A stretch of 64,000 bases of DNA from Candidatus Delongbacteria bacterium (GTDB taxonomy: Bacteria; CAIWAD01). Made by a program: the position numbers and the translations under genes. Positions 7,044 through 25,872 of the stretch are shown here, in pieces. A model generated the notes under the pieces. It made no database searches. It was not told the DNA's origin and worked only from the letters and a program-made list of their open reading frames with translations. The stretch lies in assembly GCA_963663545.1 (NCBI GenBank), contig OY760505.1, positions 352,001 through 416,000 on the forward strand, read 5' to 3'. How positions within the stretch are numbered: position 1 is the first letter of the stretch; each line of letters begins with the position of its first letter.

Positions 7044-8023
7044 AGGACCTGCCTCCTCATCAGCAGGGACAGCATCATGGCACAAGCCAGAAGCAGCACG
7101 GCGGCCTGCAGCCAGGGCGCGAAGCGCTCCTCCACCAACCGGTATTCGGTGACTTCAATCTCGCTGCGTTCGAGCTTGTCGATCTGTTCGTAGACGGCCT
7201 TCAGCTCCGAAAGGTCGTGAGCACGGAAATAGCGGCCACCGGTTTTGGTGGCGATCTCGCGCAGCAGCTCCTCGTCGATGTGCGCCTCAATATTCTGCAA
7301 GCGCGTTCCAAAGGGCGTCTGCACGGGAATGGGCGCCATGCCATCGCGGCCCACGCCGATGGTGTGCACGGTAATGCCTTCGGTAATGGCCAGATCCAGC
7401 GCGGTGCGCGGATCGATGCCGCGATTGTTCTCGCCATCGGTGAGCAGAATCAGCACGCGACTCTTGGCATCGCTTTCACGCAAACGGTTGACGCCCGTTG
7501 CCAGCGCCAGACCGACGGCGGTGCCGTCCTCCATCTCGCCGATTTCTACCTGATCGAGCTGGGAGAGCAGCAGGTCGTGATCCAGCGTCAAGGGGCACTT
7601 GGTGTAGGCTTCGCCCGCGAACACCACCAGCCCCAGCCGGTCCTGCCCGCGACCGCGAATGAAATCGGCGGCCACCGCACGGGCGGCATCAAGTCGATTG
7701 GGCTTCAGATCCTGCGCCTGCATGGAACCAGAAAGATCCAGCGCCAGCACGATGTCGATGCCCTCGCTGTGAACTTCTTGCTCGCTCTGCACGGCAATCG
7801 GCCTGGCCAGCGCGACCACGGCAGCGGCCACGGCAAGGGCCAGCAGCACAGGCGAAAGCCACAGTTTCAGCAGACTCTTGTAAGACAAGCGCACGATGGA
7901 CAACTCTTCGCGCGAGGAAGTCAGCAGGGACGGTCGACGCACTCGTTCGCGCCCCAGATGCCAGACGGCGGCTAGCGGAATCAGGAGCAGCAATAGCAGC
8001 AGCCAGGGATGCATGAAGGTCAT
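7040..8023 (-). CDS. batA: VWA-domain protein BatA
   Basis: DLSGSM MIDAS, GTAVG, LLTDGENN, IDEELLREIA, TM segments at both ends. Confidence 0.9.
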   Translation of the reverse strand: MTFMHPWLLLLLLLIPLAAVWHLGRERVRRPSLLTSSREELSIVRLSYKSLLKLWLSPVLLALAVAAAVVALARPIAVQSEQEVHSEGIDIVLALDLSGSMQAQDLKPNRLDAARAVAADFIRGRGQDRLGLVVFAGEAYTKCPLTLDHDLLLSQLDQVEIGEMEDGTAVGLALATGVNRLRESDAKSRVLILLTDGENNRGIDPRTALDLAITEGITVHTIGVGRDGMAPIPVQTPFGTRLQNIEAHIDEELLREIATKTGGRYFRAHDLSELKAVYEQIDKLERSEIEVTEYRLVEERFAPWLQAAVLLLACAMMLSLLMRRQVL

Positions 8024-9042
8024 GGGCGCACCTCCCCGGGTTGTGATTCAGCCCTTGTCTCATCATCAGCTGTGTCACGCTCCTGCTCCGCGAGTTCGCG
8101 GGAGTGATACAGCGCCATCAGACCCGGCTTGACGCTTTCGGCCCAGCGTGCGTAGTCGTCGGCAAGGTGACGGTTACGCTCGTCCGTGGGCCACTGGCGC
8201 GCGTACTTCACCAGATCGTTCTCGCGCAGCAGCTCCAGCAGCCGGCGGCGATCCGCCTCACCAAAGGGCGCGTGATCCAGCAGCTCCTCGATTTCGTAGG
8301 TGGTCATTTCACGTGCCGGACGTCGCATGCTGTCTTCCAGCAGACCACGCACGGCCAGGCTAAGTTGCGCCCAGTACTCGACCACGTCGCCGCTGCGCCA
8401 GAGTTCCTCAAAACGGATGCGGGTCATCGCGGCGCTGAAGATCTCCCAGGGATCGCGCTGCGGTTCCGGCTCTACCCGTACGCCAGCGAGGGCTCGCGGT
8501 CGAGTCCACCAACGCCAGCCCAGCCAGCATAGTAGCAGAACAGCCAGCAGCACAATGGCACGTATCACAAACCACAGCGGGCCGTGATGCACATTGAGCG
8601 GCGGCACGATGTCGCGCGGCAATGGCGCCTGCTGCGGCTCTCCGGCGTTCTCTAGCGGAACGCCACGGGGCAGGACGCTGAGCACTTCCAGACGCAGGCT
8701 GTCACTAACCAGCTCGCCCGAGTCACCTCCGCGCGTCCATGTGACACCTTGCGGCGGAAGTGTCACTGTGCCGATTTCGTAGGCGGCCAGGGTCAGAATG
8801 CGACGCTCGCCGCCTCCCTCAATCGCGACCAGGGTATCGGCCAGCAGGCCGCACGAGCCGAGGCGCAGCTTTTCGACGGCGGGCCAGTTGAGCTCACCGC
8901 CTTCGCCTGCGCTGGCGTCCATCCACAATTGAAAGGGATCGCCGACCGTGATGCTGTCGACGCCCACCAGGTTGTACTCCAAAGTGGCTCCGCGAGCGAG
9001 CAGCAACGCCGGCCACAGCAGTAGTGTGATCCAGAGTCTCAT
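8020..9042 (-). CDS. Membrane protein of the MoxR/Bat operon (DUF4381-like)
   Basis: Start moved to ATG 9042 (ATGA overlap). Signal peptide, ITVGDPF, TM segment, EMTTYEI and DLVKYAR. Confidence 0.75.
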   Translation of the reverse strand: MRLWITLLLWPALLLARGATLEYNLVGVDSITVGDPFQLWMDASAGEGGELNWPAVEKLRLGSCGLLADTLVAIEGGGERRILTLAAYEIGTVTLPPQGVTWTRGGDSGELVSDSLRLEVLSVLPRGVPLENAGEPQQAPLPRDIVPPLNVHHGPLWFVIRAIVLLAVLLLCWLGWRWWTRPRALAGVRVEPEPQRDPWEIFSAAMTRIRFEELWRSGDVVEYWAQLSLAVRGLLEDSMRRPAREMTTYEIEELLDHAPFGEADRRRLLELLRENDLVKYARQWPTDERNRHLADDYARWAESVKPGLMALYHSRELAEQERDTADDETRAESQPGEVRP

Positions 9043-9914
9043 CGGCGACGGCTCCTGTTGCGGAAGAAATGATTGAGTGGACGCGCGTAGTCTTCGCCTG
9101 CCACCAGCTCCACCTGGTCGATGCGCAGACGGCGCAGAGTGTGGGTGAGCTCTTCGCGGCGACGATGCGCGGCGCGTCGATAGGCGTCCCGTGTGCGAGG
9201 ACAGGCCGTGTCGACCCAACGGCGCTGGCCGCTTTCCAGATCCTGCACGCGCAGAAGACCGGCCTGGGGCAGTTCATCCTCCCAGGGGTCGCGCACGCTC
9301 ATGGCCACAAGATCGTGCTTTTGGCGCAGTGCGCGCAGAGCGGGCGTGTAGTCCGTATCACGAAAATCACTGAGCAGGAAGACAATGGCCTTCTTCTTCT
9401 GCACGCGCGCCAAGTGTTCCAGACCAGCCGTGATACGCGTCCCACGGCCCTCGGGCTGGAAATAGAGCAGGTCGCGGATCAGGCGTAACACATGACGATT
9501 GCCCTTGGCCGGTGGCACGTAGTGCTCGACGCGGTCGCTGAAGAGCAGCAGGCCCACACGATCACGATTACGAATGGCGCTGAAAGCCAGTACCGCGCCC
9601 AACTCGGCGATGAGTTCGCGCTTGCTCTGGCTCTGGCTGCCGAAGTAATCGCTGGCCGAAAGGTCCACCGCCAGGATCACCGTCAGTTCGCGCTCTTCGC
9701 GAAAAACCTTGATGAAGGGCTGGCCCATGCGGGCGCTGACATTCCAGTCGATGGAACGCACTTCGTCGCCGGGGTGATACTCGCGCACCTCGTCGAAGTC
9801 CATACCGTGGCCCTTGAACGCGCTGTGATACTCGCCGCCGAAAAGATTCTGCACGATGCTTCGCGTGCGGATCTCGATGCGCCGGATGCGCTTGAGCAAT
9901 TCTCGCGGAATCAT
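9039..9914 (-). CDS. DUF58 family protein
   Basis: GEYHSAFKGHGMDFDEVREYHPGDEVRSIDWNVSAR. Confidence 0.93.
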   Translation of the reverse strand: MIPRELLKRIRRIEIRTRSIVQNLFGGEYHSAFKGHGMDFDEVREYHPGDEVRSIDWNVSARMGQPFIKVFREERELTVILAVDLSASDYFGSQSQSKRELIAELGAVLAFSAIRNRDRVGLLLFSDRVEHYVPPAKGNRHVLRLIRDLLYFQPEGRGTRITAGLEHLARVQKKKAIVFLLSDFRDTDYTPALRALRQKHDLVAMSVRDPWEDELPQAGLLRVQDLESGQRRWVDTACPRTRDAYRRAAHRRREELTHTLRRLRIDQVELVAGEDYARPLNHFFRNRSRRR

Positions 9915-9924
9915 ACCGCGCCCC

Positions 9925-10914
9925 CTACGCGACTTGGATAGTGTCCAGGATACGACGCAGCACGTCGTCCGCCTTCAGTTCCTCGGCCTCGGCCTCGTAG
10001 CTGAGTCCGATGCGGTGACGCATCACGGGCAGCGCCACCTGCTTGACGTCGTCGGGTGTCACAAAACCGCGACGACGCAGGAAGGCCATCGCGCGAGCGG
10101 CGCGGGCCAGATAAATTGTAGCACGCGGACTGGCACCGTACTCCAGCAGCGGGGCTACATCCTTCAGGCCGTAGCGTTCGGGCTCGCGAGTGCAGAAGAC
10201 CAGATCGAGGATGTAGTCTTCGACCTTCTGCTCCAGCAGAATCTGCTGAGTCAGCTCGCGGGCGGCGATGATCTTCGCCGGATCACAAACCGCGCTCACG
10301 GCGGCGGCAAAGGCGCCCGTGTTACGGCGCAGAATCTCGCGTTCCTCGTCGCGTTCGGGGTAGTCGATGAGCACTTTCAGCATGAAGCGGTCCACCTGGG
10401 CCTCGGGCAGCGGGTACGTGCCTTCTTGCTCCAGGGGGTTCTGGGTGGCCATGACCAGGAAGGGCTGCGGCAGCGGCATGGTTTCACCGCCGATGCTCAC
10501 CTGGCGCTCCTGCATGGCTTCCAAAAGCGCGCTTTGCACCTTGGCCGGGCTGCGGTTGATCTCGTCGGCCAGCACCAGATTGGCGAAGACCGGTCCTTTG
10601 CGCGTGTGGAAATCGCCGGTGCGCTGATCGTAAATCTGCGTTCCCACCAGGTCGGCGGGCAGCAGGTCGGGGGTAAACTGGATTCGCGCAAAGCTCGTGT
10701 CGATGGCCTTGGAGAGCGTGGCGATGGCCGTGGTTTTGGCCAGGCCGGGAACGCCTTCCAGCAGAATGTGGCCGTCCGCCAGCAGCCCCAGCAGCAGGCC
10801 TTCGAACATGCGGCGCTGCCCCACCAGCACCTTGCGCACTTCCTGATCCAGCTCCGTCAGAAAGCCCGAGGCTTCCTCTACGCGACGTGAAAGTTCCATG
10901 GCATCCAGTTGCAT
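9925..10914 (-). CDS. moxR: MoxR-family AAA+ ATPase
   Basis: Walker A GVPGLAKT, RIQFTPDLLPAD, DEINR, ATQNPLEQEGTYPLPEAQVDRF. Confidence 0.95.
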   Translation of the reverse strand: MQLDAMELSRRVEEASGFLTELDQEVRKVLVGQRRMFEGLLLGLLADGHILLEGVPGLAKTTAIATLSKAIDTSFARIQFTPDLLPADLVGTQIYDQRTGDFHTRKGPVFANLVLADEINRSPAKVQSALLEAMQERQVSIGGETMPLPQPFLVMATQNPLEQEGTYPLPEAQVDRFMLKVLIDYPERDEEREILRRNTGAFAAAVSAVCDPAKIIAARELTQQILLEQKVEDYILDLVFCTREPERYGLKDVAPLLEYGASPRATIYLARAARAMAFLRRRGFVTPDDVKQVALPVMRHRIGLSYEAEAEELKADDVLRRILDTIQVA

Positions 10915-11700: not shown

Positions 11701-11837
11701 AAAGTGACGGTTCAAGAGCGCTGTATGAGAGTAGGAGCTAGCTGAAATGCGATTGCTCAAAACTCGCCAAGAAAAGGATGGTTGAGCGGTTTCGGTCAGT
11801 AACAAAGCAACCTTCACCCAGTAACCAGGGGCGTAAC

Positions 11838-11870
11838 AAAACCCCCGACGGCACACGGTGCCATCGGGGG
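11838..11870 (-). terminator. Rho-independent terminator closing the FGE array
   Basis: Minus strand CCCCCGATGGCAC-CGT-GTGCCGTCGGGGG followed by TTTTGTT. Confidence 0.8.
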
Positions 11871-11913
11871 CAAGAATCGTTCTCTCAAGAACCAAGGGGA
11901 CAAAACCCAAGGG

Positions 11914-13128
11914 TCAAAACACCGTGCGGGCGGCGCGGAAACCCACGCTGCCGGACGTGTACGTCGGGTAGTTGTCGATGTGGGGCGCACACCGAACGTA
12001 CGCGGCATCGTTGTACCAGCCGCCACCCCGAAGCACACGGGTGGAGCCGCCTGTAATTCCGTATGGGTCAGATTGAGTGGAGCTGCTGTAGCTCCCATAC
12101 CAATCACCGCACCACTCCCAGACATTGCCCGCCAGGTCGTAGAAACCACGACCCGTCGCAGGATAACTGCCCACAGGGGTGGACCAGCCCACACAGTAGT
12201 TGTAGTTCAACCGCTCGCAGGTCGGCAACTCACTACCCCAGGGGTACTCTCTCTCATCGTCCCACTGGGCGGCGTACTCCCACTCCGCCTCCGTGGGTAG
12301 GCGGTAGCCCTGGGCGAGATAGGGATCATGGCTGGCGCTTTGATTCCAGTTGCCCTGGTAGAATGCTGGCAGACCTTCCATCAGACTGCGCCAGTCGCAG
12401 TAGCAGGCGGCACCGCACCAGCTGACTTCGATCGCCGGGTGATCGGCCGGGTCGTAGCCGTCCGGGTAGGCAAAGCCGGGTCCCCAGGTGCCATTGTTGT
12501 ACGTACGCGCCACCAGGTAGAACTGCTGGGTGCCCGTGTTAAAGGCGATCTCGCAGTAGTTGGTGTCATCCAGATCGAACAGCTCTACCCCGTAGGCCTG
12601 CACGCTGCTGCTGCTGGCGCTCACCAGGCCCTGGCCGAGCGCCCACTGCAGGGCGTCCATGTACTCCGCGTTGGTCACTTCGTGGGCGTCTAGGTAGAAG
12701 TCGTGGGTCAGGTGTACCGTGTGTTCGGGTGTGATTACACCAGCCTGCCCCATCATGAAGCTGCCGGCGGGAACGAGCACCATGTCCTCCGGAGCCATTG
12801 CTTCCGCATCAACACGCACCACCGCATTCTCGTGATACACACTGCCCAGCCAGGCCTGCAGGTTGATGCTGGCGAAGTGTTCTCCGACGAGCATCTCGCC
12901 GAAGTCGCCCCCAAGGTACGGGTCGGGAACGGCCGTGAAGCTCACGCCTCCGTCCAGGGAGAGCAGCAGGCTGATGTTCGCGTCCTGGTCCGCCAGCCGG
13001 TAGTGCACCTGCAGCCAGCCGGGCGTGTTGCTGTCCTGGTAAAAACTTACCTCAGACACCGTCTGCGCCGCCACGAAACCTGCCAGCAGCAGCGTCCACA
13101 GCAGGGCGATCATTGTACTCCTGTTCAT
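11914..13128 (-). CDS. Secreted Ig-like + FGE-sulfatase (C-type-lectin fold) protein, copy A1
   Basis: Signal peptide, EVTN, RLPTEAEWEYAA, YPWG, DLAGNVWEWC, RGG.W and GFR motifs. Lacks the catalytic CxxxxC of true FGE. Confidence 0.9.
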   Translation of the reverse strand: MNRSTMIALLWTLLLAGFVAAQTVSEVSFYQDSNTPGWLQVHYRLADQDANISLLLSLDGGVSFTAVPDPYLGGDFGEMLVGEHFASINLQAWLGSVYHENAVVRVDAEAMAPEDMVLVPAGSFMMGQAGVITPEHTVHLTHDFYLDAHEVTNAEYMDALQWALGQGLVSASSSSVQAYGVELFDLDDTNYCEIAFNTGTQQFYLVARTYNNGTWGPGFAYPDGYDPADHPAIEVSWCGAACYCDWRSLMEGLPAFYQGNWNQSASHDPYLAQGYRLPTEAEWEYAAQWDDEREYPWGSELPTCERLNYNYCVGWSTPVGSYPATGRGFYDLAGNVWEWCGDWYGSYSSSTQSDPYGITGGSTRVLRGGGWYNDAAYVRCAPHIDNYPTYTSGSVGFRAARTVF

Positions 13129-13137
13129 CTTCCCCCC

Positions 13138-13812
13138 CTACTTCAGCAAAGTGATTTTGTGCTGGGCGACACAATCACCCGCCTGCAGACGTACGATGTA
13201 GATGCCGCTGGCCAGCGCGCTTCCGATAAAGAGCGCCTGGTGCTCGCCGCTGTTCTGCAGGCCGTGATACAAGTCCGCCACCCTCTGTCCACGCAGGTTG
13301 TAAACGCAAAGGGAAGTCTCCTCCGTCTGCGCCAGCACATAGTGGATCACCGTGCCGGGGTTGAAGGGATTGGGGTGTGCGCCCAGCAGCGCAAAACTGG
13401 CTGGCTGCTCATCGGCGGAAGCAACGGCCTCTTCGATCACCTCGAACTCCGTCGACCAGAGCTCGCCTACATTGCCGCAGGCGTCCTGTACGTGAAAGTG
13501 AAACTGGTAGAAGCCCAGCTCCAGCTCGCAGGGCCAGTCGAAGTTGGCGCCGTAGCCCAGGGTCGTGTGCATGGGAACGCTGAGGCCAGCGCCCTCGGCA
13601 GTAATCGTGACCAGCGGCGCTTGCGCGCTCTGATCCGTCACACTGTATTCGACATAGATATCGGTGCCTTGGACGATCTGCGCGTCCAGCACGCTGTCCA
13701 GCGAAACCTGCGGCGCGACGGTGTCAATGACGCCGGGTGCGCTGTCGGCATAGCTGGCAAAAAGGGACGGGCAAGCGAGAAGGCTCGCCAGCACCAGAGT
13801 GCGGTAGTACAT
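13138..13812 (-). CDS. Secreted Ig-like protein with T9SS/FlgD-like CTD, partner B1
   Basis: Signal peptide, IDTVAPQV, FHVQDACGN and PNPFNP...VYNLRGQRV...LASGIY...LLK. Confidence 0.85.
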   Translation of the reverse strand: MYYRTLVLASLLACPSLFASYADSAPGVIDTVAPQVSLDSVLDAQIVQGTDIYVEYSVTDQSAQAPLVTITAEGAGLSVPMHTTLGYGANFDWPCELELGFYQFHFHVQDACGNVGELWSTEFEVIEEAVASADEQPASFALLGAHPNPFNPGTVIHYVLAQTEETSLCVYNLRGQRVADLYHGLQNSGEHQALFIGSALASGIYIVRLQAGDCVAQHKITLLK

Positions 13813-13907
13813 ACTCTCTCCTCGAACCTGGGGTGAATCCCTGGCACACGGTGTTGTGCAGTGCTTTGTTGCTCCTGGGAATGGATGATTCTGCTATAAC
13901 TGTCCGA

Positions 13908-13922
13908 GCAAGCCGTATGCCA
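13908..13922 (-). promoter_or_regulatory. Sigma-54 -24/-12 promoter for B1-A1
   Basis: Minus strand TGGCATA-CGGC-TTGC with exact GG-N10-GC spacing. Confidence 0.75.
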
Positions 13923-14161
13923 ACGGAGCATTATCGTTTACGGGCGCTAAGTGTTTGTTCCTTGCTTTAATATTTCCTGGGTGTGTGGGCGTGGAGCGCG
14001 CGCTGGTGCCGGATCTGGTACAATCTCCCCGACAGTCCAGACACAACAGCGCAGCTGTAGCCGATGCCCGGGCAACCATCGCAGCTCCCACAGAGCGCAA
14101 CGGCAAAGGCTCGGCCAGAAGTTGTTGCTTCCATCAGGCGTGCGCGACTGCCGGACAGAGG

Positions 14162-14191
14162 CAAGCGGCCCGTCGGCTGACGGGTCGCTTG
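14162..14191 (-). terminator. Hairpin downstream of A2
   Basis: CAAGCGGCCCGTC-GGCT-GACGGGTCGCTTG; homologous to hairpins at 16466 and 18776. Confidence 0.65.
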
Positions 14192-14229
14192 ATTTTTCTT
14201 GCGGGCCATGCCCGGCATGTGATACAAGA

Positions 14230-15468
14230 TCAGGGATTGGCGGTACGGCAGACGCGGAAGCCCACGTGGCCGCTCGTGCGCGACGGGGAGTAGTGGCCGT
14301 CGCGATACGCACACCGGACGTACTCGGCAGCGTGGTTCCAGCTGCCACCCCGAATCACGCGGTAGGAGCTGCTCGATATTCCGTATGGATTCGACTGTGC
14401 CGAACTGCTATAGTTGCCATACCAATCACCGCACCACTCCCCGACATTGCCCGCCAGGTCATAAAACCCGCGGCCAGATGGCGGATAGCTGCCTACGGGC
14501 GAGGTCCAGCCCACGCAGTAGCTGCTGCCGTTGTAGTAGTTCAGCAACGCGCAGTCGGGTGGTTCATTACCCCAGGGATAGCTGCGTTCGTCGTTCCACT
14601 GTGCCGCGTACTCCCACTCGGCCTCCGTGGGCAGGCGATAGCCCTGCGCCGTGTATGGATCATGGCTGGCCGACTGATTCCAGTTGCCCTGGTAGAATGC
14701 CGGCAGACCCTCCATCAAACTGCGCCAGTCGCAATAGCAGGCTGCCCCGTACCAGCTCACTTCCTTCACCGGGTGATCGGCCGGGTCATAGCCGCCGGGG
14801 TAGGCAAAGCCAGGACCCGAGAAGCCGCTGGTGTACGAGCGTGCCACCAGATAGAACTGCTGGGTATTGGTGTTGAAGCCGATCTCGCAAAAGCTCGTGG
14901 CATACAGGTCAAGCAGCTCTACCCCGTAGGCCTGCACGCTGCTGCTGGTTACGCTAACCAGCCCCTGGTTGAACGCCCACTGCATCGCGGCCAGATACTC
15001 GGCGTTGGTCACTTCATGGGTATCCAGGTAAAAATCTTGCGTCAGCGTGACTGTGTGTTCGGGTGTGGCCACATCAGAATCAGACTCGCCCATCACGAAG
15101 CTTCCGGCGGGAACGAGGATCATGCTCACCAGAGCCGCCGCTTCCGCATCAACACGCACCACCGCATTCTCGTGATACACGCTGCCCAGCCAGGCCTGCA
15201 GGTTGATGCTGGCGAAGTGTTCGCCGACGAGCATCTCGCCGAAGTCGCCCCCGAGGTACTGGTCGGGAACGGCCGTGAAGCTCACGCCGCCGTCCAGGGA
15301 GAGCAGCAGGCTGATATTCGCATCCTGCTCTGCCAGCGTGTAATGCACCGTCACTAGCCCGCTGCCGTCCTGCGCCTGAGCAAAGCTCACATCTGACACC
15401 GTTTGCGCCGCAGCAAAGCCTGCCAGCAATAGCGTCCACAGCAGGGCGATCATTGTATTTCGATTCAT
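14230..15468 (-). CDS. Secreted Ig-like + FGE-sulfatase protein, copy A2
   Basis: Paralogue of A1 with the same motifs. Confidence 0.9.
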   Translation of the reverse strand: MNRNTMIALLWTLLLAGFAAAQTVSDVSFAQAQDGSGLVTVHYTLAEQDANISLLLSLDGGVSFTAVPDQYLGGDFGEMLVGEHFASINLQAWLGSVYHENAVVRVDAEAAALVSMILVPAGSFVMGESDSDVATPEHTVTLTQDFYLDTHEVTNAEYLAAMQWAFNQGLVSVTSSSVQAYGVELLDLYATSFCEIGFNTNTQQFYLVARSYTSGFSGPGFAYPGGYDPADHPVKEVSWYGAACYCDWRSLMEGLPAFYQGNWNQSASHDPYTAQGYRLPTEAEWEYAAQWNDERSYPWGNEPPDCALLNYYNGSSYCVGWTSPVGSYPPSGRGFYDLAGNVGEWCGDWYGNYSSSAQSNPYGISSSSYRVIRGGSWNHAAEYVRCAYRDGHYSPSRTSGHVGFRVCRTANP

Positions 15469-15477
15469 GCTTTCCCC

Positions 15478-16152
15478 CTACTTCAGCAAAGTGATTTTCT
15501 GCTGGGCCACGCGCTCGCCCGCCTGCAGACGTACGATGTAGATGCCGCTGGCCAGCGCGCTGCCGTCAAAGAGCGCCTGGTGCTCGCCGCTGTCCTGCAG
15601 GCCGTGGTACAATTCCGCCACACGCTGACCGCGCAGGTTGTAGACCTCGAGCGAAGCCTCGGCGGTCTGCGCCAGTGCGTAGCGAATCACCGTGCCGGGG
15701 TTGAAGGGGTTGGGATGCGCGCCCAACAGCGCAAAGCTGGCCGGCTGCTCATCGGCGGAAGCAACGGCCTCTTCGATCACCTCGAACTCCGTCGACCAGA
15801 GCTCGCCTACATTGCCGCAGGCGTCCTGTACGTGAAAGTGAAACTGGTAGATGCCCAGCTCTAGCTCACAGGGCCAGTTGAAGTTGGCGCCGTAGCCCAG
15901 GGTTGTGTGCATGGGAACGCTGAGGCCAGCGCCCTCGGCTGTAATTGTGACCAGCGGCGCTTGCGCGCTCTGGTCTGTCACGCTGTACTCAACGTAGACG
16001 TCGGTGCCGTAGACGATCTGCGCGTCCAGCACGCTGTCCAGCGAAACCTGTGGCGCAACGGTGTCAATGACGCCGGGTGCGCTGTCGGCATAGCTGGCAA
16101 AAAGGGACGGGCAGGCGAGAAGGCTCGCCAGCACCAAAGTGCGGTAGTACAT
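15478..16152 (-). CDS. Secreted Ig-like + CTD partner B2
   Basis: Near-identical to B1, 224 aa from ATG 16152. Confidence 0.85.
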   Translation of the reverse strand: MYYRTLVLASLLACPSLFASYADSAPGVIDTVAPQVSLDSVLDAQIVYGTDVYVEYSVTDQSAQAPLVTITAEGAGLSVPMHTTLGYGANFNWPCELELGIYQFHFHVQDACGNVGELWSTEFEVIEEAVASADEQPASFALLGAHPNPFNPGTVIRYALAQTAEASLEVYNLRGQRVAELYHGLQDSGEHQALFDGSALASGIYIVRLQAGERVAQQKITLLK

Positions 16153-16250
16153 ACTCTCTCCTCGAATCCGTGCGAATCCCTCACAGTGGCGCTGCGGCAG
16201 GATTCTGTGTTTGCTGAAAACGAAATCTGATTTTGCTGCTACGCTTGATT

Positions 16251-16265
16251 GCAAGCTTCATACCA
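16251..16265 (-). promoter_or_regulatory. Sigma-54 promoter for B2-A2
   Basis: Minus strand TGGTATG-AAGC-TTGC. Confidence 0.7.
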
Positions 16266-16460
16266 ATTCCTGCAATGCGTGCCGGAATTGGCAACTGTTA
16301 TAATTCCAAGTAGATGCTTCGCTAATTCGGTGTTGCAGAAATGCAAGTGTGCCGGATACGCGACAGAAGTACAGAACAGCGCGAACACTATTACGCCTGC
16401 GGCGGGAATGGGACACGGCTTTGGAGGGTGGACCGATTCAGGTGCCTTGTCTGTGCACAC

Positions 16461-16493
16461 AAAGAAAGCGACCCGCCGACTAACGGGTCGCTT
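16461..16493 (-). terminator. Rho-independent terminator downstream of A3
   Basis: Minus strand AAGCGACCCG...CGGGTCGCTT followed by TCTTT. Confidence 0.7.
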
Positions 16494-16532
16494 GATTTTC
16501 CTTGCGGGCCATGCCCGGCATGTGATACAAGA

Positions 16533-17753
16533 TCAGGGATTGGCCGTACGGCAGACGCGGAAGCCCACTTGGTAGCTCATTCCATTCGGGCTGTTGCCAT
16601 TGCGGTACGCACACCGGACGTACGTGGCAGAGCTGCTCCAGGCTCCACCTCGACGCACGCGAGCATTAATGCCATCAATTCCGTATGGATTGGATTGAGG
16701 GGAGCTGCTGTAGCTTCCAAACCAATCTCCGCACCACTCATAGAGATTGCCCGCCATGTCGCAGAAGCCAAGGTCTGTAGCCGGATAACTGCCCACCGGG
16801 GTGGTCCAGGCCACACAGTTGTTGTAGTTCAACCGCTCGCAGATCGGCAAGTCATTGCCCCAGGGGTATTCTCTATTATCGTCCCACTGGGCGGCGTACT
16901 CCCACTCTGCCTCCGTGGGTAGGCGGTAGCCCAGGGCCAGATAAGGATCATGGCTCAGGTCTTGATTCCAGTTGCCCTGGTAGAAGGCGGGTAGGCCATC
17001 CATCAGGCTGCGCCAGTCGCAATAGCAGGCGGCGCCGAACCAGCTGACTTCCTTCACCGGGTGATTAGCCGGGTCGTAGCCGTCGGGATAGGCAACGCCG
17101 GGCCCCCATAAGCCACCGCTCGTGCGCGCAACCAGATAGAACTGCTGGATGCTGGCATCGAAGGCAATCTCGCAGTAGTCGGTAGCGTTCAGGTCCAGCA
17201 GCTGCTTACCATAGGCCTGCACGCTGCTGCTGCTGGCGGTCACCAGGCCCTGGTTGTACGCCCACTGCAGCGCGGCCAGGTACTCGGCATTGGTCACCTC
17301 GCAGCGTCCCAGGTAGAAGTCGTTCGTTAGTGTGACCTGATGCTCAGGTGATGAAAAATATATGCCCTCCTGCCCCATCATGTAGCTGCCGGCGGGAACG
17401 AGGATCATGCTCACCAGAGCCGCCGCTTCCGCATCAACACGCACCACCGCATTCTCGTGATACACGCTGCCCAGCCAGGCCTGCAGGTTGATGCTGGCGA
17501 AGTGTTCTCCGACGAGCATCTCGCCGAAGTCGCCCCCAAGGTACTGGTCGGGAACGGCCGTGAAGCTCACGCCTCCGTCCAGGGAGAGCAGCAGGCTGAT
17601 GTTCGCGTCCTGGTCCGCCAGCCGGTAGTGCACCTGTAGCCAGCCGGGTGTGGTACTGTCCTGATAAAAGCCCACTTCCGACACGGTTTGCGCCATCGTG
17701 ACACACGCCATCAGCAGTCCGAGCAGCAGGGCGATGCAGGTAGTCTTCTTCAT
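16533..17753 (-). CDS. Secreted Ig-like + FGE-sulfatase protein, copy A3
   Basis: Paralogue of A1 and A2. Confidence 0.9.
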   Translation of the reverse strand: MKKTTCIALLLGLLMACVTMAQTVSEVGFYQDSTTPGWLQVHYRLADQDANISLLLSLDGGVSFTAVPDQYLGGDFGEMLVGEHFASINLQAWLGSVYHENAVVRVDAEAAALVSMILVPAGSYMMGQEGIYFSSPEHQVTLTNDFYLGRCEVTNAEYLAALQWAYNQGLVTASSSSVQAYGKQLLDLNATDYCEIAFDASIQQFYLVARTSGGLWGPGVAYPDGYDPANHPVKEVSWFGAACYCDWRSLMDGLPAFYQGNWNQDLSHDPYLALGYRLPTEAEWEYAAQWDDNREYPWGNDLPICERLNYNNCVAWTTPVGSYPATDLGFCDMAGNLYEWCGDWFGSYSSSPQSNPYGIDGINARVRRGGAWSSSATYVRCAYRNGNSPNGMSYQVGFRVCRTANP

Positions 17754-17766
17754 TTCTCTTCCCCCC

Positions 17767-18441
17767 CTACTTCAGCAAAGTGATTTTGTGCTGGGCCACG
17801 CGCTCGCCCGCCTGCAGCCGTACGATGTAGATGCCGCTGGCCAGCGCGCTGCCGTCGAAAAAGACCTGGTGCTCGCCGCTGTCCTGCAGGCCGTGATACA
17901 AGTCCGCCACCCGCTGTCCACGCAGGTTGTAGACGCAGAGGGAAGTCTCCTCCGTCTGCGCCAGCGCATAGTGGATTACCGTGCCTGGGTTGAAGGGGTT
18001 GGGATGTGCTCCCAACAGCGCAAAACTGGCTGGCTGCTCATCGGCGGAAGCAACGGCCTCTTCGATCACCTCGAACTCTGTCGACCACGTGTCACAGAAG
18101 TTGCCGCAGGCGTCCTGTACGTGAAAGTGAAACTGGTAAATGCCTAGCTCCAGCTCGCAGGGCCAGTTGAAGTTGGCGCCGTAGCCCAGGGTTGTGTGCA
18201 TGGGAACGCTGAGGCCAGCGCCCTCGGCAGTAATTGTGACCAGCGGCGCTTGCGCGCTCTGATCCGTCACGCTGTACTCAACGTAGACGTCGGTGCCTTG
18301 GACGAGCTGCGCGTCCAGCACGCTGTCCAGCGAAACCTGCGGTGCGACGGTGTCAATGACGCCGGGTGCGCTGTCGGCATAGCTGGCAAAAAGGGACGGG
18401 CAGGCGAGAAGGCAAGCAAGCATCAACGTGCGAACAGTCAT
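17767..18441 (-). CDS. Secreted Ig-like + CTD partner B3
   Basis: Near-identical to B1, 224 aa from ATG 18441 with RBS GAGGAG. Confidence 0.85.
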   Translation of the reverse strand: MTVRTLMLACLLACPSLFASYADSAPGVIDTVAPQVSLDSVLDAQLVQGTDVYVEYSVTDQSAQAPLVTITAEGAGLSVPMHTTLGYGANFNWPCELELGIYQFHFHVQDACGNFCDTWSTEFEVIEEAVASADEQPASFALLGAHPNPFNPGTVIHYALAQTEETSLCVYNLRGQRVADLYHGLQDSGEHQVFFDGSALASGIYIVRLQAGERVAQHKITLLK

Positions 18442-18535
18442 GATCACTCCTCGATTCCGCACAGTCTTACACCTAGCTGTAGGCTGCGGTGAATGCTGTT
18501 GTAGGTTATAGATCGATTTTGCTGAAGCGCAGAGC

Positions 18536-18550
18536 GCAAATGATGTGCCA
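18536..18550 (-). promoter_or_regulatory. Sigma-54 promoter for B3-A3
   Basis: Minus strand TGGCACA-TCAT-TTGC. Confidence 0.78.
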
Positions 18551-18849
18551 TTTTCGTCACACACCTTCGCGTTTGAACAATTGTTCAAATTTCAAGCAGA
18601 TAGCAACCAGAGAATTGAGGAAGAAAAGGCCTCGTGTGCCGGATTTTCTACAGAATTAGGCTCAGACTGAACAATATTTCGCGAACCTTTCCATTGCTTG
18701 GTGGATATCGAGCCAGAATGCCGAAGCTCCATCCATGTACGCACAACGGGCACTTCTACTCGTGCACAGAGCAAGGCGACCCGCCAGCTGACGGGTCGCA
18801 GAAGGTTCGAATTCCAAAACATGAAGGCAGCCAACTGTATCCGGTCACG

Positions 18850-19003
18850 GCTGGAAGCCCCTCCCTCAGGCTTAGCCAGTCGCAATAACAGGCGGCGCCG
18901 TGCCAGCGGACTTCCTTCACCGGGTGAGAGGTGCTTCCAGAGCGCGGGTGAGCCCCGAAGCCAACAGCAGAAGCAGAGCAAACAGTGTTGTGAGCTTCCT
19001 CAT
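18850..19003 (-). pseudogene. Internally deleted remnant of an 'ALEAP'-type FGE gene
   Basis: ATG 19003 (RBS GAGGAG) gives MRKLTTLFALLLLLASGLTRALEAP, joined out of frame to the mid-FGE fragment HPVKEVRWHGAACYCDWLSLREGLPA. Confidence 0.8.
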
Positions 19004-19017
19004 GGTCTCCTCTCAAG

Positions 19018-20220
19018 TCAGGGGTTGACAGTTCGGGCGGCGCGAAAACCCACTCCGCTGCTCGCGTACAAGGGGTCGCTGTTGCGTCGATGCGCACACT
19101 GGACGTTTGTGTCATCGCCGGTCCAGCAGCCACCCCGAATCACTCGAGAGGGGCTACCAGCAATTCCGTATGGATTGGTTTGGTTTGAGCTGCTATAGCT
19201 GCCATACCCATCACCGCACCACTCCCGGATGTTCCCCGCGAGATCTGAAAAACCACGTCCCGTCAGCGGATAGTTGCCAACCGGGGAGGTCCAGCCTATG
19301 CAGTAGCTGCCGCCGTCGTGGTAATTCAGCAATGCGCAGGTGGGGGATTCATTTCCCCAGGGGTAGCTACGTTCATCGTCCCACTGCGCCGCATATTCCC
19401 ATTCAGCCTCCGTCGGCAAACGGTAGCCCTGCGCCAGATAGGGATCGTGGCTGGCGCTTTGATCCCAGTTGCCCTGATAGAACGCGGGCAAGCCCTCGCG
19501 CAGGCTACGCCAGTCGCAGTAACACGCGGCCCCGTACCAGCTGACTTCCTTCACCGGGTGATCGGCCGGGTCGTAGCCGCCGGGGTAGGCGAATCCAGGC
19601 CCCCAGCTACCACTGTTGTATGAGCGCGCCACCAGATAGAACTGCTGTGTACTCGTGTTGAATGCGATCTCGCAGTAGTTAGTGGCATCCAGATTGAGCA
19701 GCTCCACACCGTAGGCCTGTACGCTGCTGCTGTCAGCAGTCACCAGGTCCTGCCCTAGAGCCCACTGCAAGGCTTCCATGTACTGCTGGTTGGTCACCTC
19801 ATGTGCGTCCAGGTAGAAGTCGTAGGTCAGGTGTACCGTGTGCTCCGGCGTGGCCACACCAGCCTGTCCCATCGTGAAGCTACCGGCGGGTACGAACACC
19901 ATGTCGCCTAACTCGCCGATAGCTACAACATTGAAGCTGCCGAATCGAGACGGCTGAAACAGCGAGTCCCACCCCGTAGGCAGGGCGAATTGGCAGCTAG
20001 TTGTATCGGTCCAGGCCAGCAGCGAGTCGGGGCCCGTCCACTGGGTTCTCCCCCGAACCTGATAGGAGACCGCCCCTGCTACGGAAATCCAGTCCAGCCT
20101 GACGCAAGTAGTGTCGCCGTCACACGCGGCAGTGATGGAGACCTGCGGAGCGTCCAGCGCAAAAACAGCCACCAGCGGGATCAGCCACACAGCAGCCATG
20201 ACAAGCACATTCCTCATCAT
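19018..20220 (-). CDS. Secreted FN3-like + FGE-sulfatase protein, copy A4
   Basis: ATG 20220, ALDAPQVSI...LDWISVAGAVSYQV N-domain and the FGE motifs. Confidence 0.88.
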   Translation of the reverse strand: MMRNVLVMAAVWLIPLVAVFALDAPQVSITAACDGDTTCVRLDWISVAGAVSYQVRGRTQWTGPDSLLAWTDTTSCQFALPTGWDSLFQPSRFGSFNVVAIGELGDMVFVPAGSFTMGQAGVATPEHTVHLTYDFYLDAHEVTNQQYMEALQWALGQDLVTADSSSVQAYGVELLNLDATNYCEIAFNTSTQQFYLVARSYNSGSWGPGFAYPGGYDPADHPVKEVSWYGAACYCDWRSLREGLPAFYQGNWDQSASHDPYLAQGYRLPTEAEWEYAAQWDDERSYPWGNESPTCALLNYHDGGSYCIGWTSPVGNYPLTGRGFSDLAGNIREWCGDGYGSYSSSNQTNPYGIAGSPSRVIRGGCWTGDDTNVQCAHRRNSDPLYASSGVGFRAARTVNP

Positions 20221-20899
20221 TCTCTCCTGTTTCTTTCGTCGTCGTGTTTTGATCTCTGCTCGGGTTTCTGCTCTGCGCCCTACCACTCGCCAGCGATCCA
20301 TCCGCCTACGGCCCTATGCGCAACGCGTGTGCGGCATGGCAGCAGATGTACTCAGCGGGTACGGCTGTTGGTCGGCAACTCAACGTGACTGGTAATCAAT
20401 GCCAGGTAGAACAGCATGGCCGTCCGCGAAAGTGTCCACGGGCGTGTCACCCCATGTACTCCCGCGACTCCCCGTCTTGCTGCAAAACGGGACGACTCTG
20501 TGATTTCGTTGCTATTTCTGGTCTTGCTGCAATACTGTTGCGCAATCGGCAGACCAGTTTGCCTCCGCTGCGTGCTTGAGCGTAATGACACTATTTTCAG
20601 TCAGATATCAGCTGCGGTCAGACCGGCTTTTCCTGTACATGCCGGATATTCACCAAATTGGGCGTCGGCATGAACACCTAGGAGCAGCGTTCTCCAGCAA
20701 TCACACTTTCAGTCTGGTTGCTCATGGGACAAGCAACCCGTCAGCTAGCAAGTCGAAGTGGGAACTCTATCGTACCAGGCAGCGAGGCTGTCCGCCGTGA
20801 CACACGCTCACTCGCGTCCTGTCTACCCTGGACATCTTCAATACGCGAGAGTTGGCGCAGCAAACTCCAACGGACCGGCGATTGTGTCACGCGGTAACA

Positions 20900-22039
20900 C
20901 TAATCGACGGTACGCACGCAGCGAAAACCGCAGTCGCTGTACGCGCTCGTAGGCGTTTCGTTGTCGCGGTACGCACAGCGGGCGTAGCTGGCATTGTCGT
21001 TCCAATCTCCCCCGCGCAGCGCACGAGCCGTGCCGCTCGCATTTCCGTATGGATTAGTCTGAGTCGAGCTGCTGTAGTCCCCATACCAATCGCCGCACCA
21101 CTCCCAGACATTGCCCGCCAGATCGTAAAACCCACGTCCCGTCGCCGGATAACTGCCCACCGGGGTGGTCCAACCCACACAGTTGTTGTAGTTCTGCCGT
21201 TCGCAGGAAGGGGATTCATTGCCCCAGGGGTAGCTACGCTCATCGTCCCATTGCGCGGCGTACTCCCACTCCGCTTCCGTCGGTAGACGATAGCCCTGTG
21301 CCATGTAGGGATCGTGGCTCGCGTCAATATTCCAGTTGCCCTGGTAGAAGGCGGGCAAGCCTTCCCTCAGGCTGCGCCAATCGCAGTAACACGCGGCTCC
21401 GTACCAAGTGACCTCGATCACCGGGTGTTGCTCGCTCCCCGCATCCACGCTGAACTGGGACCCGGAGTAGGAGATCTCGCAATCAATATCATCCAGGTCC
21501 AGCAGCTCCAGTCCGTAAGCCTGCACGCTGCTGCTGCTGGCAGTGACCAATCCCTGGTCGTACGCCCACTGCAGGGCCTCTACGTATTCCTGGTTGCTCA
21601 CCTCGTACTGTCCCAGGTAGAAGTCGTGGCTCAGGGTCACGGTGTGTTCCGGCTCGGCCACGCCCACCTGTCCCATGACGAACTCACCGGCAGGCACGAG
21701 CACCAGCGGCATCTCCTCCACCGTCGTCACCGCGCGCACGGAAAAGAGCCGCGCCACGTTGGGGCGTACGCGACCGACCTGCAGCATGGGCACGCGCAGA
21801 CTGTACTCGCAGTTGGTGGTCGTGGTCAGCAGCGAGTCCGTCTGCCAGGCGGCGTTGCGCGGGTCGCGGTGGTAGAGCTCGTAATACTCAGCGCCGCTGA
21901 CGCTGGGCCAGGAAAGCTGCACCTGCACGCAATCCAGATCCGGGTTGTACTGGGTGCTCAGGCTGAGCTGGGGCGTCTCCAGAGCGTGCGCGAGCCCGGC
22001 GGTCAGCAGCAGGGCAAACAAGGTGATACGTCGCAGCAT
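20900..22039 (-). CDS. Secreted FN3-like + FGE-sulfatase protein, copy A5
   Basis: ALETPQLSL...LSWPSVSGAEYYELY N-domain and the FGE motifs; shorter internal insert. Confidence 0.88.
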   Translation of the reverse strand: MLRRITLFALLLTAGLAHALETPQLSLSTQYNPDLDCVQVQLSWPSVSGAEYYELYHRDPRNAAWQTDSLLTTTTNCEYSLRVPMLQVGRVRPNVARLFSVRAVTTVEEMPLVLVPAGEFVMGQVGVAEPEHTVTLSHDFYLGQYEVSNQEYVEALQWAYDQGLVTASSSSVQAYGLELLDLDDIDCEISYSGSQFSVDAGSEQHPVIEVTWYGAACYCDWRSLREGLPAFYQGNWNIDASHDPYMAQGYRLPTEAEWEYAAQWDDERSYPWGNESPSCERQNYNNCVGWTTPVGSYPATGRGFYDLAGNVWEWCGDWYGDYSSSTQTNPYGNASGTARALRGGDWNDNASYARCAYRDNETPTSAYSDCGFRCVRTVD

Positions 22040-22056
22040 GATGGATCCTTTTGAGT

Positions 22057-23262: not shown

Positions 23263-23396
23263 GGTGGATCCTTGGCCGTGGAACACCTCTGGACACGAGT
23301 GAGCGCGCCACGTAGCTACCACCGCGCGCTGGCAATCGGACGATGTCGTGCGTGCAGGTGCATTCGTGGATTCTGCTCCATTTTTCTTGTTGTGCT

Positions 23397-23411
23397 GCAA
23401 GCTTCGCACCA
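23397..23411 (-). promoter_or_regulatory. Sigma-54 promoter for A6-A5
   Basis: Minus strand TGGTGCG-AAGC-TTGC. Confidence 0.65.
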
Positions 23412-23577
23412 AAGCTGCAACGAGCGCGGCCTTGCTCGTATGTTCTATAATTTCAATTCATGTCACTTCAGCCTGGAACCTGTCTGCCCGCCGGATTCTC
23501 GACATAGATAACAGGAATAGAACAGTATGAATCCAACGCAGACATCGGCAGCCTGGGGCGCGAGACGCGGGGTCCCT

Positions 23578-23745
23578 TCCCCTCCCAATCGGTATCCGAC
23601 TCGCCCCGAGTCGGCGGGATCGCTATCGGTATCGGTATCGTTCCCCCTTCCCCCCCCAATCGGTATCATTCTTCCTTCTCCTGTTCCTTCGCGTAGATTC
23701 CAGCAACAAGCAGGTTTCCGAATCCGACTCCGAAATCGACCTGCC
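23578..23745. repeat. Intergenic REP-like cluster, same family as 11525-11700
   Basis: CCCCTCCCAATCGGTATC, CCGACTCG-CCC-CGAGTCGG at 23596-23614 and ATCGGT iterations. Confidence 0.7.
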
Positions 23746-23845
23746 CCCGTGACGAGCTGGGTCGGCACCGATCGAGATGAGGAAGTGGATGAGACCACGC
23801 ATCCCGTGATCTTGAGAGCGAGCCCTGTTCGCTTCGATCCTCCCG

Positions 23846-25090: not shown

Positions 25091-25099
25091 GCTTCCCCC

Positions 25100-25774: not shown

Positions 25775-25872
25775 ACTCTCTCCTCAAATGCGGATGTCCT
25801 CCTGCGAGGCCTGCTGCGGGAAGATCAATTGCTTGCTGATGATGGAATCGGATTCTGCCGCGCACAGCACAT

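Follow-up and report, generated by a model that had tools for sequence, protein, structure and literature searches.

Several diversity-generating retroelements (DGRs) that serve more than one target have been described. The survey by Wu et al. (2018, PMC5758913) reports a Treponema DGR with seven non-adjacent targets and a Stenotrophomonas DGR with eight tandem targets, and it states that a remote target is assigned only if its differences from the template repeat (TR) are A-to-N changes. Targets that outlive their element have also been reported; Treponema denticola isolates without RT and TR retain target genes, which are described as remnants (PMC4891356).

The genes considered here, A1 to A4, lie in a window of 64 kb (the whole stretch of DNA that was analysed) in a genome of 3.72 Mb assembled as a single contig. 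An initial annotation of this window drew attention to a variable-repeat (VR) signature at the 3' ends of A1-A3, took these genes to be remote targets, served in trans by a DGR located elsewhere, or frozen products of one, and reported no RT or template repeat in the window. The search of the window bore out the last point: neither an RT nor a template was found, and RT, Avd and HRDC gave no match there even at E ≤ 10.

Organization of the array

All four genes are encoded on the minus strand. A1 (11914..13128) is an ORF for a predicted secreted protein of the FGE-sulfatase/C-type-lectin fold with 404 amino acids (PF03781, E = 2e-46). Its paralogs are A2 (14230..15468, 412 amino acids, E = 8.1e-53), A3 (16533..17753, 406 amino acids, E = 4.2e-47) and A4 (19018..20301, an ORF of 427 amino acids, E = 7e-45), and the family has roughly 25-30 members in the genome. 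A4 lies beyond the region initially annotated (11880..16682) and carries the same codon signature as A1-A3. Each of A1-A3 belongs to a tandem two-gene unit, behind a partner gene on the same strand that carries a C-terminal sorting domain (PF18962) of the type IX secretion system (T9SS). The partner genes were located at 13138..13812 upstream of A1 (E = 4.2e-06), 15478..16254 upstream of A2 (E = 4e-08) and 17767..18588 upstream of A3 (E = 2.1e-07); in the latter two an internal Met is probably the true start. Compared in 60-nt windows, the partner gene of A1 and its copies share 82-100% identity, and the array as a whole is a mosaic of homogenised and old parts.

The VR-like hypervariable segment of A1 (11947..12021, minus strand) comprises 25 codons, GWYNDAAYVRCAPHIDNYPTYTSGS, corresponding to residues 370-394 of 404. 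Upstream of it a looser variability reaches 12057, and on the 3' side it is sharply bounded by the conserved GTGGGTTTCCGC (VGFR) at 11935..11946. By codon alignment, the equivalent minus-strand segments were placed at 14266..14343 in A2 (26 codons, one extra), 16569..16643 in A3 (25 codons) and 19054..19128 in A4 (25 codons), so that one codon indel separates the copies.

The sequence after A1 and its GC hairpin, which had been likened to IMH/hairpin cis elements, are present as described, but the hairpin is an intrinsic terminator (11841..11871, minus strand) rather than such an element, because it lies 45 nt beyond the stop codon and its 14-pair stem with 10 GC pairs is followed by the T-run TTTTGTT. 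Equivalent terminators follow A2 and A3. At the end of the A1 segment, GTGGGTTTCCGC occupies the place expected of an IMH without a template to match, and no IMH matched by a TR was found, as the genome is without a cognate TR.

Domain family and likely function

A1-A4 match PF03781 with 154-180 bits against a gathering cut-off of 23.3, and the match ends 3-5 residues before the C-terminus. The VR-like segment lies at the 3' end of an ORF of the C-type-lectin/FGE-sulfatase fold, as for DGR variable repeats, and its approximately 25 codons correspond in structure to the variable repeat found in the target proteins of DGRs. Among PDB sequences, A1 matches formylglycine-generating enzyme (FGE, E = 2.7e-20), PorK (E = 7e-17) and TvpA (2y3c, E = 5.4e-14). 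When aligned to FGE, A1 shows a gap of 3 residues and no cysteines, and its variable segment replaces the active-site stretch, in the C-terminal loop that carries the active-site cysteine pair of FGE. Because that stretch is replaced in A1, A1-A4 are unlikely to be enzymes. They would rather represent a lineage-specific expansion of secreted, non-enzymatic binding proteins of this fold, with a putative role in ligand binding.

The codon-position signature

The aligned codons of A1-A3 in which positions 1 and 2 change while position 3 stays fixed were found as first described, and the bias of positions 1-2 over position 3 is significant (Fisher p = 1.1e-4 to 2.4e-5). In the 25-codon segment, 14/16/6 sites vary at codon positions 1/2/3, as against 58/55/118 in 255 upstream codons of the FGE domain (Fisher p = 1.1e-4). 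Across A1-A4, divergence in the segment is 3-4 times that of the upstream codons at positions 1-2 but lower than theirs at position 3. Nei-Gojobori estimates of dN/dS are 1.45-3.56 for the segment, compared with 0.11-0.31 for the upstream part. On comparing 25-codon windows along A1-A4, the segment showed both the highest divergence at positions 1-2 (0.46; maximum elsewhere 0.40) and the lowest at position 3 (0.19; minimum elsewhere 0.22), and none of 298 other windows was as extreme on either measure.

The fixed third position cannot be put down to codon bias. If codons are drawn independently for the amino acids present, a third-position difference of 0.56 is expected, compared with the observed 0.19, and none of 2000 simulations gave so low a value; the observed value is 34% of the expectation from independent draws in the segment and 70% of it upstream (0.36). 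Summed over six non-independent pairs, the third position is the same in 74/93 codon pairs with different amino acids (205/365 upstream) and in 41/51 pairs with identical ones (696/1091 upstream). A1 and A2, whose 3' tails are of different types, differ at 2/25 third positions in the segment and at 85/256 upstream (p = 0.011). Taken pair by pair, the deficit is significant in only two of the six A1-A4 pairs, which are not independent. The third positions of the segment are younger than the gene body.

Other features of the codons are less pronounced. The codons are mostly NNC/NNT, but the excess of NNC given the amino acids present is marginal (40/63 as against 33.9 ± 3.6 expected, z = 1.69). 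E, K, Q, M and W are weakly depleted (4/63 versus 15.6% expected, p = 0.024; 31/272 in the control region). Transitions make up equal shares of the differences at positions 1-2 in the segment (65/138, 0.47) and upstream (231/468, 0.49), whereas roughly one third would be expected from random redraws. As expected of a relic VR, the hypervariability of A1-A4 is restricted to positions 1-2 of the codons in a C-terminal segment within the range of ~25-40 codons, and the non-variable bases of this segment are more alike than those of the gene body.

Comparisons were also made within the genome. The ratio of divergence at positions 1-2 to that at position 3 is 1.92-2.40 for A1-A4 pairs (the three equal-length pairs being comparable) and 2.60 for A1 and P548, a dispersed paralog; it is 2.75 for VRa and VRb, a true DGR pair. 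Two ordinary recent duplicates gave 0.25 and 0.28, and the median over 168 other pairs was 0.97. In one ordinary duplicate (3.477/3.480 Mb) the homologous segment shows 2/3/9 differences at positions 1/2/3. P548 and P545, located about 175-185 kb from the array, share its low-position-3 skeleton; the third-position divergence is 0.19 between A2 and P548, compared with 0.46 upstream (p = 0.011), and 0.23 between A6 and P545, compared with 0.57 upstream (p = 0.0013). The variable loop is different in each of the genome's 30 paralog C-termini, among them distant ones that contain E, M, K and W.

The search for a template

The sole RT of the genome (PF00078, E = 5.3e-16) is an intact 371-aa ORF at G000:C1:854878-855990, about 490 kb from A1-A4, and belongs to an intact DGR with an HRDC gene, a template and two flanking targets. 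The template (854736-854853) matches its own two targets at 93/95 and 92/95 non-adenine positions, as against only 55/95 for A3 and 54/95 for A1. This DGR is of another template lineage, with a different TR/VR set. The proposal of in-trans targets is not supported, although a DGR elsewhere in the genome does exist, which shows that such elements occur in the lineage. When A1-A4 were aligned to the template, variable columns accounted for 20/22 adenines and 35/89 non-adenines (p = 9.5e-6).

A whole-genome scan that tolerated mismatches at adenines recovered the true TR for both VRa and VRb as a positive control. The non-coding copy differing only at adenines near an RT, for which the initial annotation had suggested a search, was not found genome-wide: the best non-self match of A1 is a paralog with 24 non-adenine mismatches in 132 nt, and the best matches of A2-A4, with 32-36 such mismatches, include A-rich stretches as well as paralogs. 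The same scan gave no template for 28 other paralog C-termini.

Variation at adenine positions, which that annotation had proposed to look for, was not seen between the sample contigs either. The A1 region 11874-12282 is identical in contigs of four runs (X1/X2, X3, X4; three samples, two studies), and the listing has no alternative letter for 11914-12060. The heterogeneity within or between populations that is expected of an active DGR target is thus not seen for the A1 contigs; the comparison covered A1 only, contigs hide rare variants and one sample is possibly the source of the assembly.

A decaying DGR in a sister genus

In a sister-genus genome (G001), an A1-like gene cluster contains HRDC, Avd, a frameshifted RT and an AAC-rich template, whose translation is GGSNRVIRGGNWNNSATNLRCANRNNNTPSNTNNNIGVRLC. 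The template predicted in the initial annotation closely resembles this real template repeat. Columns of A1-A4 that fall on its adenines vary in 28/30 cases, compared with 27/81 for non-adenine columns (p = 5.7e-9). Neither this coincidence nor that with the template of the intact DGR is independent proof, because template adenines mark exposed binding positions, and the same columns would be the most variable under ordinary evolution too. The G001 repeat differs from its own template at 32 non-adenine positions of 150, which indicates that DGR decay leaving frozen repeats happens in the A1-like gene family. A sister position of the G001 target to the A clade was not recovered with resolution, and among relatives that carry a DGR the nearest is of another genus, with about 60% protein identity. 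No convincing TR/VR pair was found in 23 related loci (11 from kin and 12 from metagenomes), and no intact cognate DGR was found in relatives, only the decayed one of the other genus.

Origin of the variable segments

We consider it fairly probable that the A1-A4 segments are frozen relics of a lost multi-target DGR. Such an element would once have rewritten them from one shared template, randomising adenines and copying all other bases faithfully, which would scramble positions 1-2 and leave the copies with fewer differences at position 3 and in the invariant codons than in the rest of the gene. The RT and template would later have been lost and the variants frozen, and drift since then could account for some third-position changes, the non-adenine differences and the one codon indel. 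Conserved third positions that alternate with scrambled first and second ones can arise from a shared template but not from gene conversion. Past DGR activity in A1-A4 is suggested by the adenine columns, the window extremes, the low third-position divergence and the VR-like ratio, which give the initial idea of frozen products circumstantial support short of proof. The same pattern is equally expected from intense positive selection on a binding loop if the neutral age of the segment is younger. Today A1-A4 appear to serve as a fixed set of germline-encoded proteins that differ in binding specificity.

Ordinary diversifying selection, in which a retroelement was never involved, is a less likely alternative. 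Point mutations in a ligand-contacting loop would have been fixed rapidly after tandem duplication, and perhaps after a short gene conversion that reset the 3' end, because new specificities among the paralogs were favoured; the third positions would have remained the inherited ones. Selection of this kind classically shows itself by a local dN/dS above 1, and the marginal NNC excess, the equal transition/transversion ratio of the segment and the rest of the gene, the differences in the loop among all 30 paralog C-termini (including distant ones that contain E, M, K and W) and the lack of a template in all 23 related loci agree with it, as does the mosaic array, in which conversion acts. Against this, selection would have to bring positions 1-2 of 16-19 codons to about 0.6 differences per site while position 3 reached only 0.19, and do so within a shorter period for the segment than for the flanks on both sides. 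Moreover, ordinary duplicates of the same family are dominated by position 3 in the homologous segment, and selection leaves unexplained the low-position-3 skeleton shared with genes that lie about 175-185 kb away and have much more strongly diverged bodies.

Active remote targets, rewritten in trans by the DGR at 855 kb or by one on an unassembled phage or plasmid, are largely refuted and very improbable. The genome does have an intact RT, HRDC gene and template, chromosomal DGRs can have remote targets at distances of more than 100 kb (PMC5758913), and an extrachromosomal element could be missing from a one-contig assembly. However, the template at 854736-854853 fits A1 and A3 at only 54-55/95 non-adenine positions, there is one RT only and no other template genome-wide, A1-A4 differ mutually at 27/81 non-adenine template columns and by one codon indel, and 0 differences were found through the A1 segment in the X1/X2, X3 and X4 contigs. 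Chance or an alignment artefact of biased codons, conceivable for a 25-codon segment in non-independent paralogs with one indel, is excluded by the controls (Fisher p = 1.1e-4 to 2.4e-5; 0/298 windows; 0/2000 codon-usage simulations) and by the recurrence of the pattern in A4 and P548.

If the segments are relics of a DGR, that element may, more tentatively, have seeded a hard-wired receptor repertoire of at least the four tandem genes A1-A4 and probably the dispersed P548 and P545, with A1-A3 each paired with a T9SS-displayed partner. Hypermutation on demand would then have given way, upon loss of the retroelement, to a fixed array of paralogs with different specificities.

Implications

A target enters a DGR survey only as long as a template still matches it. 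If relics can be recognised by the reversed codon-position pattern with conserved third positions, the past reach of DGRs could be estimated, and also their turnover, of which one intact, one decaying (in the sister genus) and one apparently lost element are the examples here; the origin of some large paralog families with FGE domains in uncultured FCB-group bacteria could then be explained likewise. Should a lost DGR indeed have seeded the repertoire, a shared third-position skeleton would reveal former DGR target networks in element-free genomes. For annotation, A1-A4 are best described as a predicted fixed set of secreted binding proteins, and neither as sulfatase-maturing enzymes nor as active DGR targets.

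Comparison with known systems

FGE (SUMF1) has the fold and Pfam family of A1-A4 (PDB matches of E ~ 1e-20); A1 differs from it in having no cysteines and a variable segment in place of the active-site stretch. The PorK/GldK lipoproteins of the T9SS are also FGE-fold proteins, matched by A1 residues 222-402 (E = 7e-17), and the T9SS-sorted genes adjoining A1-A3 are a further link; PorK/GldK is, however, a single-copy machine component, whereas A1-A4 are a paralog family with a hypervariable tip.

Among DGR variable proteins, TvpA of T. denticola (PDB 2y3c) shares PF03781 with A1 (sequence match E = 5.4e-14). TvpA-type proteins have the same C-terminal hypervariable place, mostly NNC/NNT codons and a conserved ...GFR... 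boundary as in A1-A4, but A1-A4 lack a cognate template and differ at non-adenine columns, and A1 is constant between samples. The multi-target DGRs of Wu et al. (2018, PMC5758913) resemble A1-A4 in having several FGE-domain paralogs, tandem and dispersed, on one chromosome; by the A-to-N rule given there, A1-A4 fail as targets of the only TR of the genome. The T. denticola remnants (PMC4891356), DGR-type targets that persist without RT or template, are the closest precedent for frozen A1-A4. They have a direct link to a known DGR in sister strains, whereas the nearest DGR-bearing relative of A1-A4 is of another genus, and, unlike those remnants, the A1-A4 copies form a tandem array with partner genes.

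The gene array and its protein family

Four minus-strand paralogs, A1 (11914-13128), A2 (14230-15468), A3 (16533-17753) and A4 (19018-20301, just outside the region singled out by the initial annotation), each carry an FGE-sulfatase domain (PF03781; E from 7e-45 to 8e-53 in a profile search). A1, A2 and A3 are each preceded by a gene whose product bears a sorting domain for type IX secretion (PF18962). The units form a tandem array which, judged by identity in successive windows, is mosaic. Between units, identity is mostly 82-100% over the partner gene and the first ~110 codons of the A gene, falls to 53-84% in the windows at the junction and signal peptide, and is 55-93% in the FGE domain. 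The FGE domain of the A units is old, with a dS of 0.5-1.2 (window 11800-18650). The array is extended by five more FGE-domain paralogs (window 20906-28318), four of them at ~20906-21706, 22069-22980, 23855-25090 and 27434-28318, the fifth being a copy with in-frame stops at 26042-26919. The spacer that separates A4 from the partner gene of A3 holds an FGE-domain gene fragment (HPVKEVRWHGAACYCDWLSLREGLPA..., minus strand, 18756-18900), which is the remnant of a deleted or rearranged paralog.

The genome, a single contig of 3.72 Mb, contains ~25-30 copies of the family, and A1-A4 group with the further paralogs A5 and A6 and two genes at 540 and 548 kb in a genome-specific clade (SH-aLRT 99). 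Sequence comparisons link A1 to solved structures of FGE (E~1e-20), to PorK/GldK (7e-17) and to TvpA, a DGR variable protein of Treponema (5.4e-14). A protein database search gave a best identity of 67% outside the genome and found no near-identical variants. Homologs in kin are recorded under Candidatus Delongbacteria.

At 45 nt downstream of the A1 stop codon, a 14-pair GC-rich stem is followed by TTTTGTT, and equivalent terminators are present at A2 and A3. The structure after A1, first likened to an IMH/hairpin element, is therefore an intrinsic terminator. Terminators included, the 3' tails of A2 and A3 share 93% and 80% identity over the two windows of 60 nt directly past the last variable codon.

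Codon-position signature of the variable segment

The variable segment spans 25 codons (26 in A2) on the minus strand, at 11947-12021 in A1, 14266-14343 in A2, 16569-16643 in A3 and 19054-19128 in A4. The codon triplets quoted in the initial annotation, with changing first and second and fixed third positions, were reproduced in the codon alignment, and the bias it had described was borne out: variable sites at positions 1/2/3 in A1-A3 number 14/16/6 in the segment versus 58/55/118 in 255 upstream domain codons (p=1.1e-4), and with A4 added the counts become 17/19/9 versus 71/62/152 (p=2.4e-5). The dN/dS ratio, 0.11-0.31 upstream, rises to 1.45-3.56 in the segment. Among all 25-codon windows of A1-A4, the segment ranks first in divergence at positions 1-2 (0.46, against at most 0.40 elsewhere) and last at position 3 (0.19, against at least 0.22 elsewhere), and none of the 298 other windows equals it on either measure.

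When codons were redrawn from the genes' own usage with the amino acids as observed, a position-3 difference of 0.56 was predicted, and none of 2000 draws came down to the observed 0.19; hence, codon bias is ruled out as the cause of the fixed third position. Relative to the independent-draw expectation, position-3 differences amount to 70% upstream and 34% in the segment. Codon pairs that encode different amino acids share the third base in 74 of 93 cases in the segment versus 205 of 365 upstream, counted over six non-independent gene pairs. The codon-position pattern is real and statistically robust. Third positions of A1 and A2 differ at 2 of 25 codons in the segment versus 85 of 256 upstream (p=0.011), even though the 3' tails of these two genes are of different types. 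The proposed NNC signature, taken narrowly, is weak, with 40 of 63 distinct codons ending in C versus 33.9 ± 3.6 expected given the amino acids.

The ratio of divergence at positions 1-2 to that at position 3 is 2.75 for VRa and VRb, the true variable repeats (VRs) of the genome's own DGR, at 853.7 and 856.5 kb. It is 1.92-2.40 in three equal-length A1-A4 pairs and 2.60 between A1 and the dispersed paralog P548. Across 168 other pairs it has a median of 0.97, and values of 0.25 and 0.28 were obtained for two ordinary recent duplicates within the family. These duplicates, which served as negative controls, are FGE-domain pairs with ordinary divergence dominated by position 3, and one of them shows 2/3/9 differences at positions 1/2/3 in the homologous segment. 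Both lie in one open frame of 1881 aa with six tandem FGE domains (G000:C1:3475233-3480539). A mosaic domain pair in the sister-genus genome G001 is likewise dominated by position 3.

The skeleton of low position-3 divergence is common to the array and to genes ~175-185 kb away, the gene bodies there being far more divergent: position-3 divergence is 0.19 in the segment versus 0.46 upstream between A2 and P548 (p=0.011), and 0.23 versus 0.57 between A6 and P545, another dispersed paralog (p=0.0013). Such a skeleton, shared by distant genes, is what would be expected of former remote targets of one template.

DGRs in kin and related loci

Of 8 further genomes from the same family, 2 have reverse transcriptase (RT) homologs. 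In G001, a DGR (L021, G001:C10:498001-518000, ~5147-10140) lies within a cluster of A1-like genes and comprises an 899-aa target, HRDC, Avd and an RT that a frameshift near 9639 breaks in two, with an AAC-rich template that overlaps the RT 3' end. The template predicted in the initial annotation is very like this one. The repeat differs from its template by 26 adenine and 32 other mismatches in 150 nt; here, a DGR is seen decaying within the gene family to which A1-A4 belong. Columns at adenines of this template are variable in A1-A4 in 28 of 30 cases versus 27 of 81 for the others (p=5.7e-9), but the association is not independent proof, because template adenines mark exposed binding positions, which would be most variable under plain selection too. 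The tree does not resolve the position of the G001 target and does not place it as sister to the A clade.

Another kin genome, G006, holds a DGR (L022, G006:C21:82001-90000) in the order target, HRDC, Avd, RT, template, the target of which resembles those of the 855-kb DGR of G000 (the genome of A1-A4) and not the A family. No pair of template and variable repeat was found in 23 related loci, among them the 12 loci, all of ≤55% identity, returned by a metagenome scan with the A1-A4 alignment; the metagenome locus L029 gave a weak tandem match only (74/80). A search with the skeleton pattern yielded 14 loci in genome_contigs, most of them from Planctomycetes, and none in viral_contigs. Two of the loci, L038 and L044, are genuine DGR templates adjoining RTs and carry the invariant-base skeleton of A1-A4, and L037 is the VR of L044 (80/80 with 12 adenine mismatches). 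The hosts of these three are Planctomycetes and one other MAG (genome_contigs), of distant phyla, and the skeleton shows family resemblance only, not ancestry.

Frozen relic or selection

We consider it fairly probable that a DGR was active here in the past and that the A1-A4 segments are its frozen relics. Copying from a common template that is faithful everywhere but at adenines would keep position 3 while scrambling positions 1-2, and neutral positions within the segment are more alike than flanking ones. Alike neutral positions, internal comparators and kin evidence are three lines that go beyond a fast-evolving loop and make this the best reading. The suggestion of frozen DGR products in the initial annotation is accordingly plausible, if unproven, and better supported than its rival by the like third positions, the comparator ratios and the kin DGR of G001. 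Gene conversion was rejected as the cause, since it cannot keep position 3 while positions 1-2 of the same codons stay scrambled.

That selection shaped the segment without any DGR appears rather unlikely, although several observations side with it. The transition fraction of position 1-2 differences is 0.47 in the segment versus 0.49 upstream, unlike the one third or so that redraws would give; the effective sample is small, and Ts/Tv did not separate selection from relics. The excess of NNC codons is marginal, as is the shortage of residues outside NNC coding, and exposed positions at template adenines would be the most variable under selection as well. Counted against relics are also the position-3 deficit, individually significant in only 2 of 6 A1-A4 pairs, the placement of the G001 target, the related loci devoid of template-repeat pairs and the nearest homologs outside the genome, which are ≤67% identical; no template, RT, Avd or HRDC remnant was found in or near the array.

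The genome's own DGR and the case against present targeting

G000 has exactly one RT (PF00078, E=5.3e-16), ~490 kb from the window, and no second one was found by tblastn with two DGR RTs. Its intact DGR (L001/L014, G000:C1:853698-857114, all parts on the minus strand) has the order FGE-domain target, template, 371-aa RT, HRDC-domain gene and second FGE-domain target; a search with the Avd of G006 revealed no Avd homolog. The template (854736-854853, minus strand, ~118 nt) agrees with its own two repeats at 93/95 and 92/95 of the non-adenine positions, and both VRs are fully compatible with it (80/80), their adenine mismatches numbering 15 and 13. Elsewhere in the genome it fits best at A3 (55/95) and A1 (54/95), a match that is ordinary family resemblance.

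A reverse scan, in which each genome position was judged by adenine mismatch as a possible template for a given segment, recovered the true template from the true repeats. In this whole-genome scan no cognate template was found for A1, the best non-self match being to a paralog and having 24 mismatches at non-adenines over 132 nt, nor for A2-A4, the best matches of which (A-rich stretches and paralogs) had 32-36 non-adenine mismatches, nor for 28 other paralog tips. When the four 3' ends were compared with the genome by low-stringency BLASTN, every match was a paralog 3' end and none was a non-coding copy. The stretch at 5372-5587 of the window (minus strand), a recurrent A-rich, spurious template-like score in adenine-mismatch scans, was rejected as a template; it is a Gln/Asp-rich low-complexity coding stretch of CAG/CAA/GAT repeats.

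Among A1-A4, 27 of the 81 columns that line up with non-adenine bases of the G001 template vary, and one codon indel sets the genes apart as well, which is incompatible with current rewriting from one template. In contigs from four public runs, which represent three samples and two studies, the A1 segment shows 0 differences and no alternative letters are listed at 11914-12060, an invariance that pertains to A1 only and to contigs, which may hide rare variants, one sample possibly being the source of the assembly. With a match of 54-55/95, no template and no A1 variation, the idea that A1-A3 are in-trans targets of a DGR elsewhere is refuted for this genome, and it is extremely improbable that the A1-A4 segments are actively targeted now.

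Possible function and comparison with known systems

A1-A4 have signal peptides, as read from the sequences, and alignment to FGE showed that they are without the stretch that bears its active-site cysteines, which we take to be the catalytic residues of FGE. In DGR variable proteins of the FGE-type fold, the variable tip is the ligand-binding surface. Homology to TvpA suggests that the variable tip of A1-A4 corresponds to this surface, and A1-A4 are likely to be secreted or surface binding proteins of different specificity. The gene order would be consistent with A proteins possibly working with the adjacent T9SS-displayed partner.

A literature search found no paper on DGRs in Delongbacteria. 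Remote DGR targets are defined by differences from the template that are A-to-N only, and DGRs with multiple targets, including eight in tandem, are described (PMC5758913). In contrast to remote targets so defined, A1-A4 have differences that are not confined to A-to-N. Isolates of Treponema denticola without RT and template keep their target genes, which are termed remnants (PMC4891356), and the concept of an orphaned target is therefore already in print.
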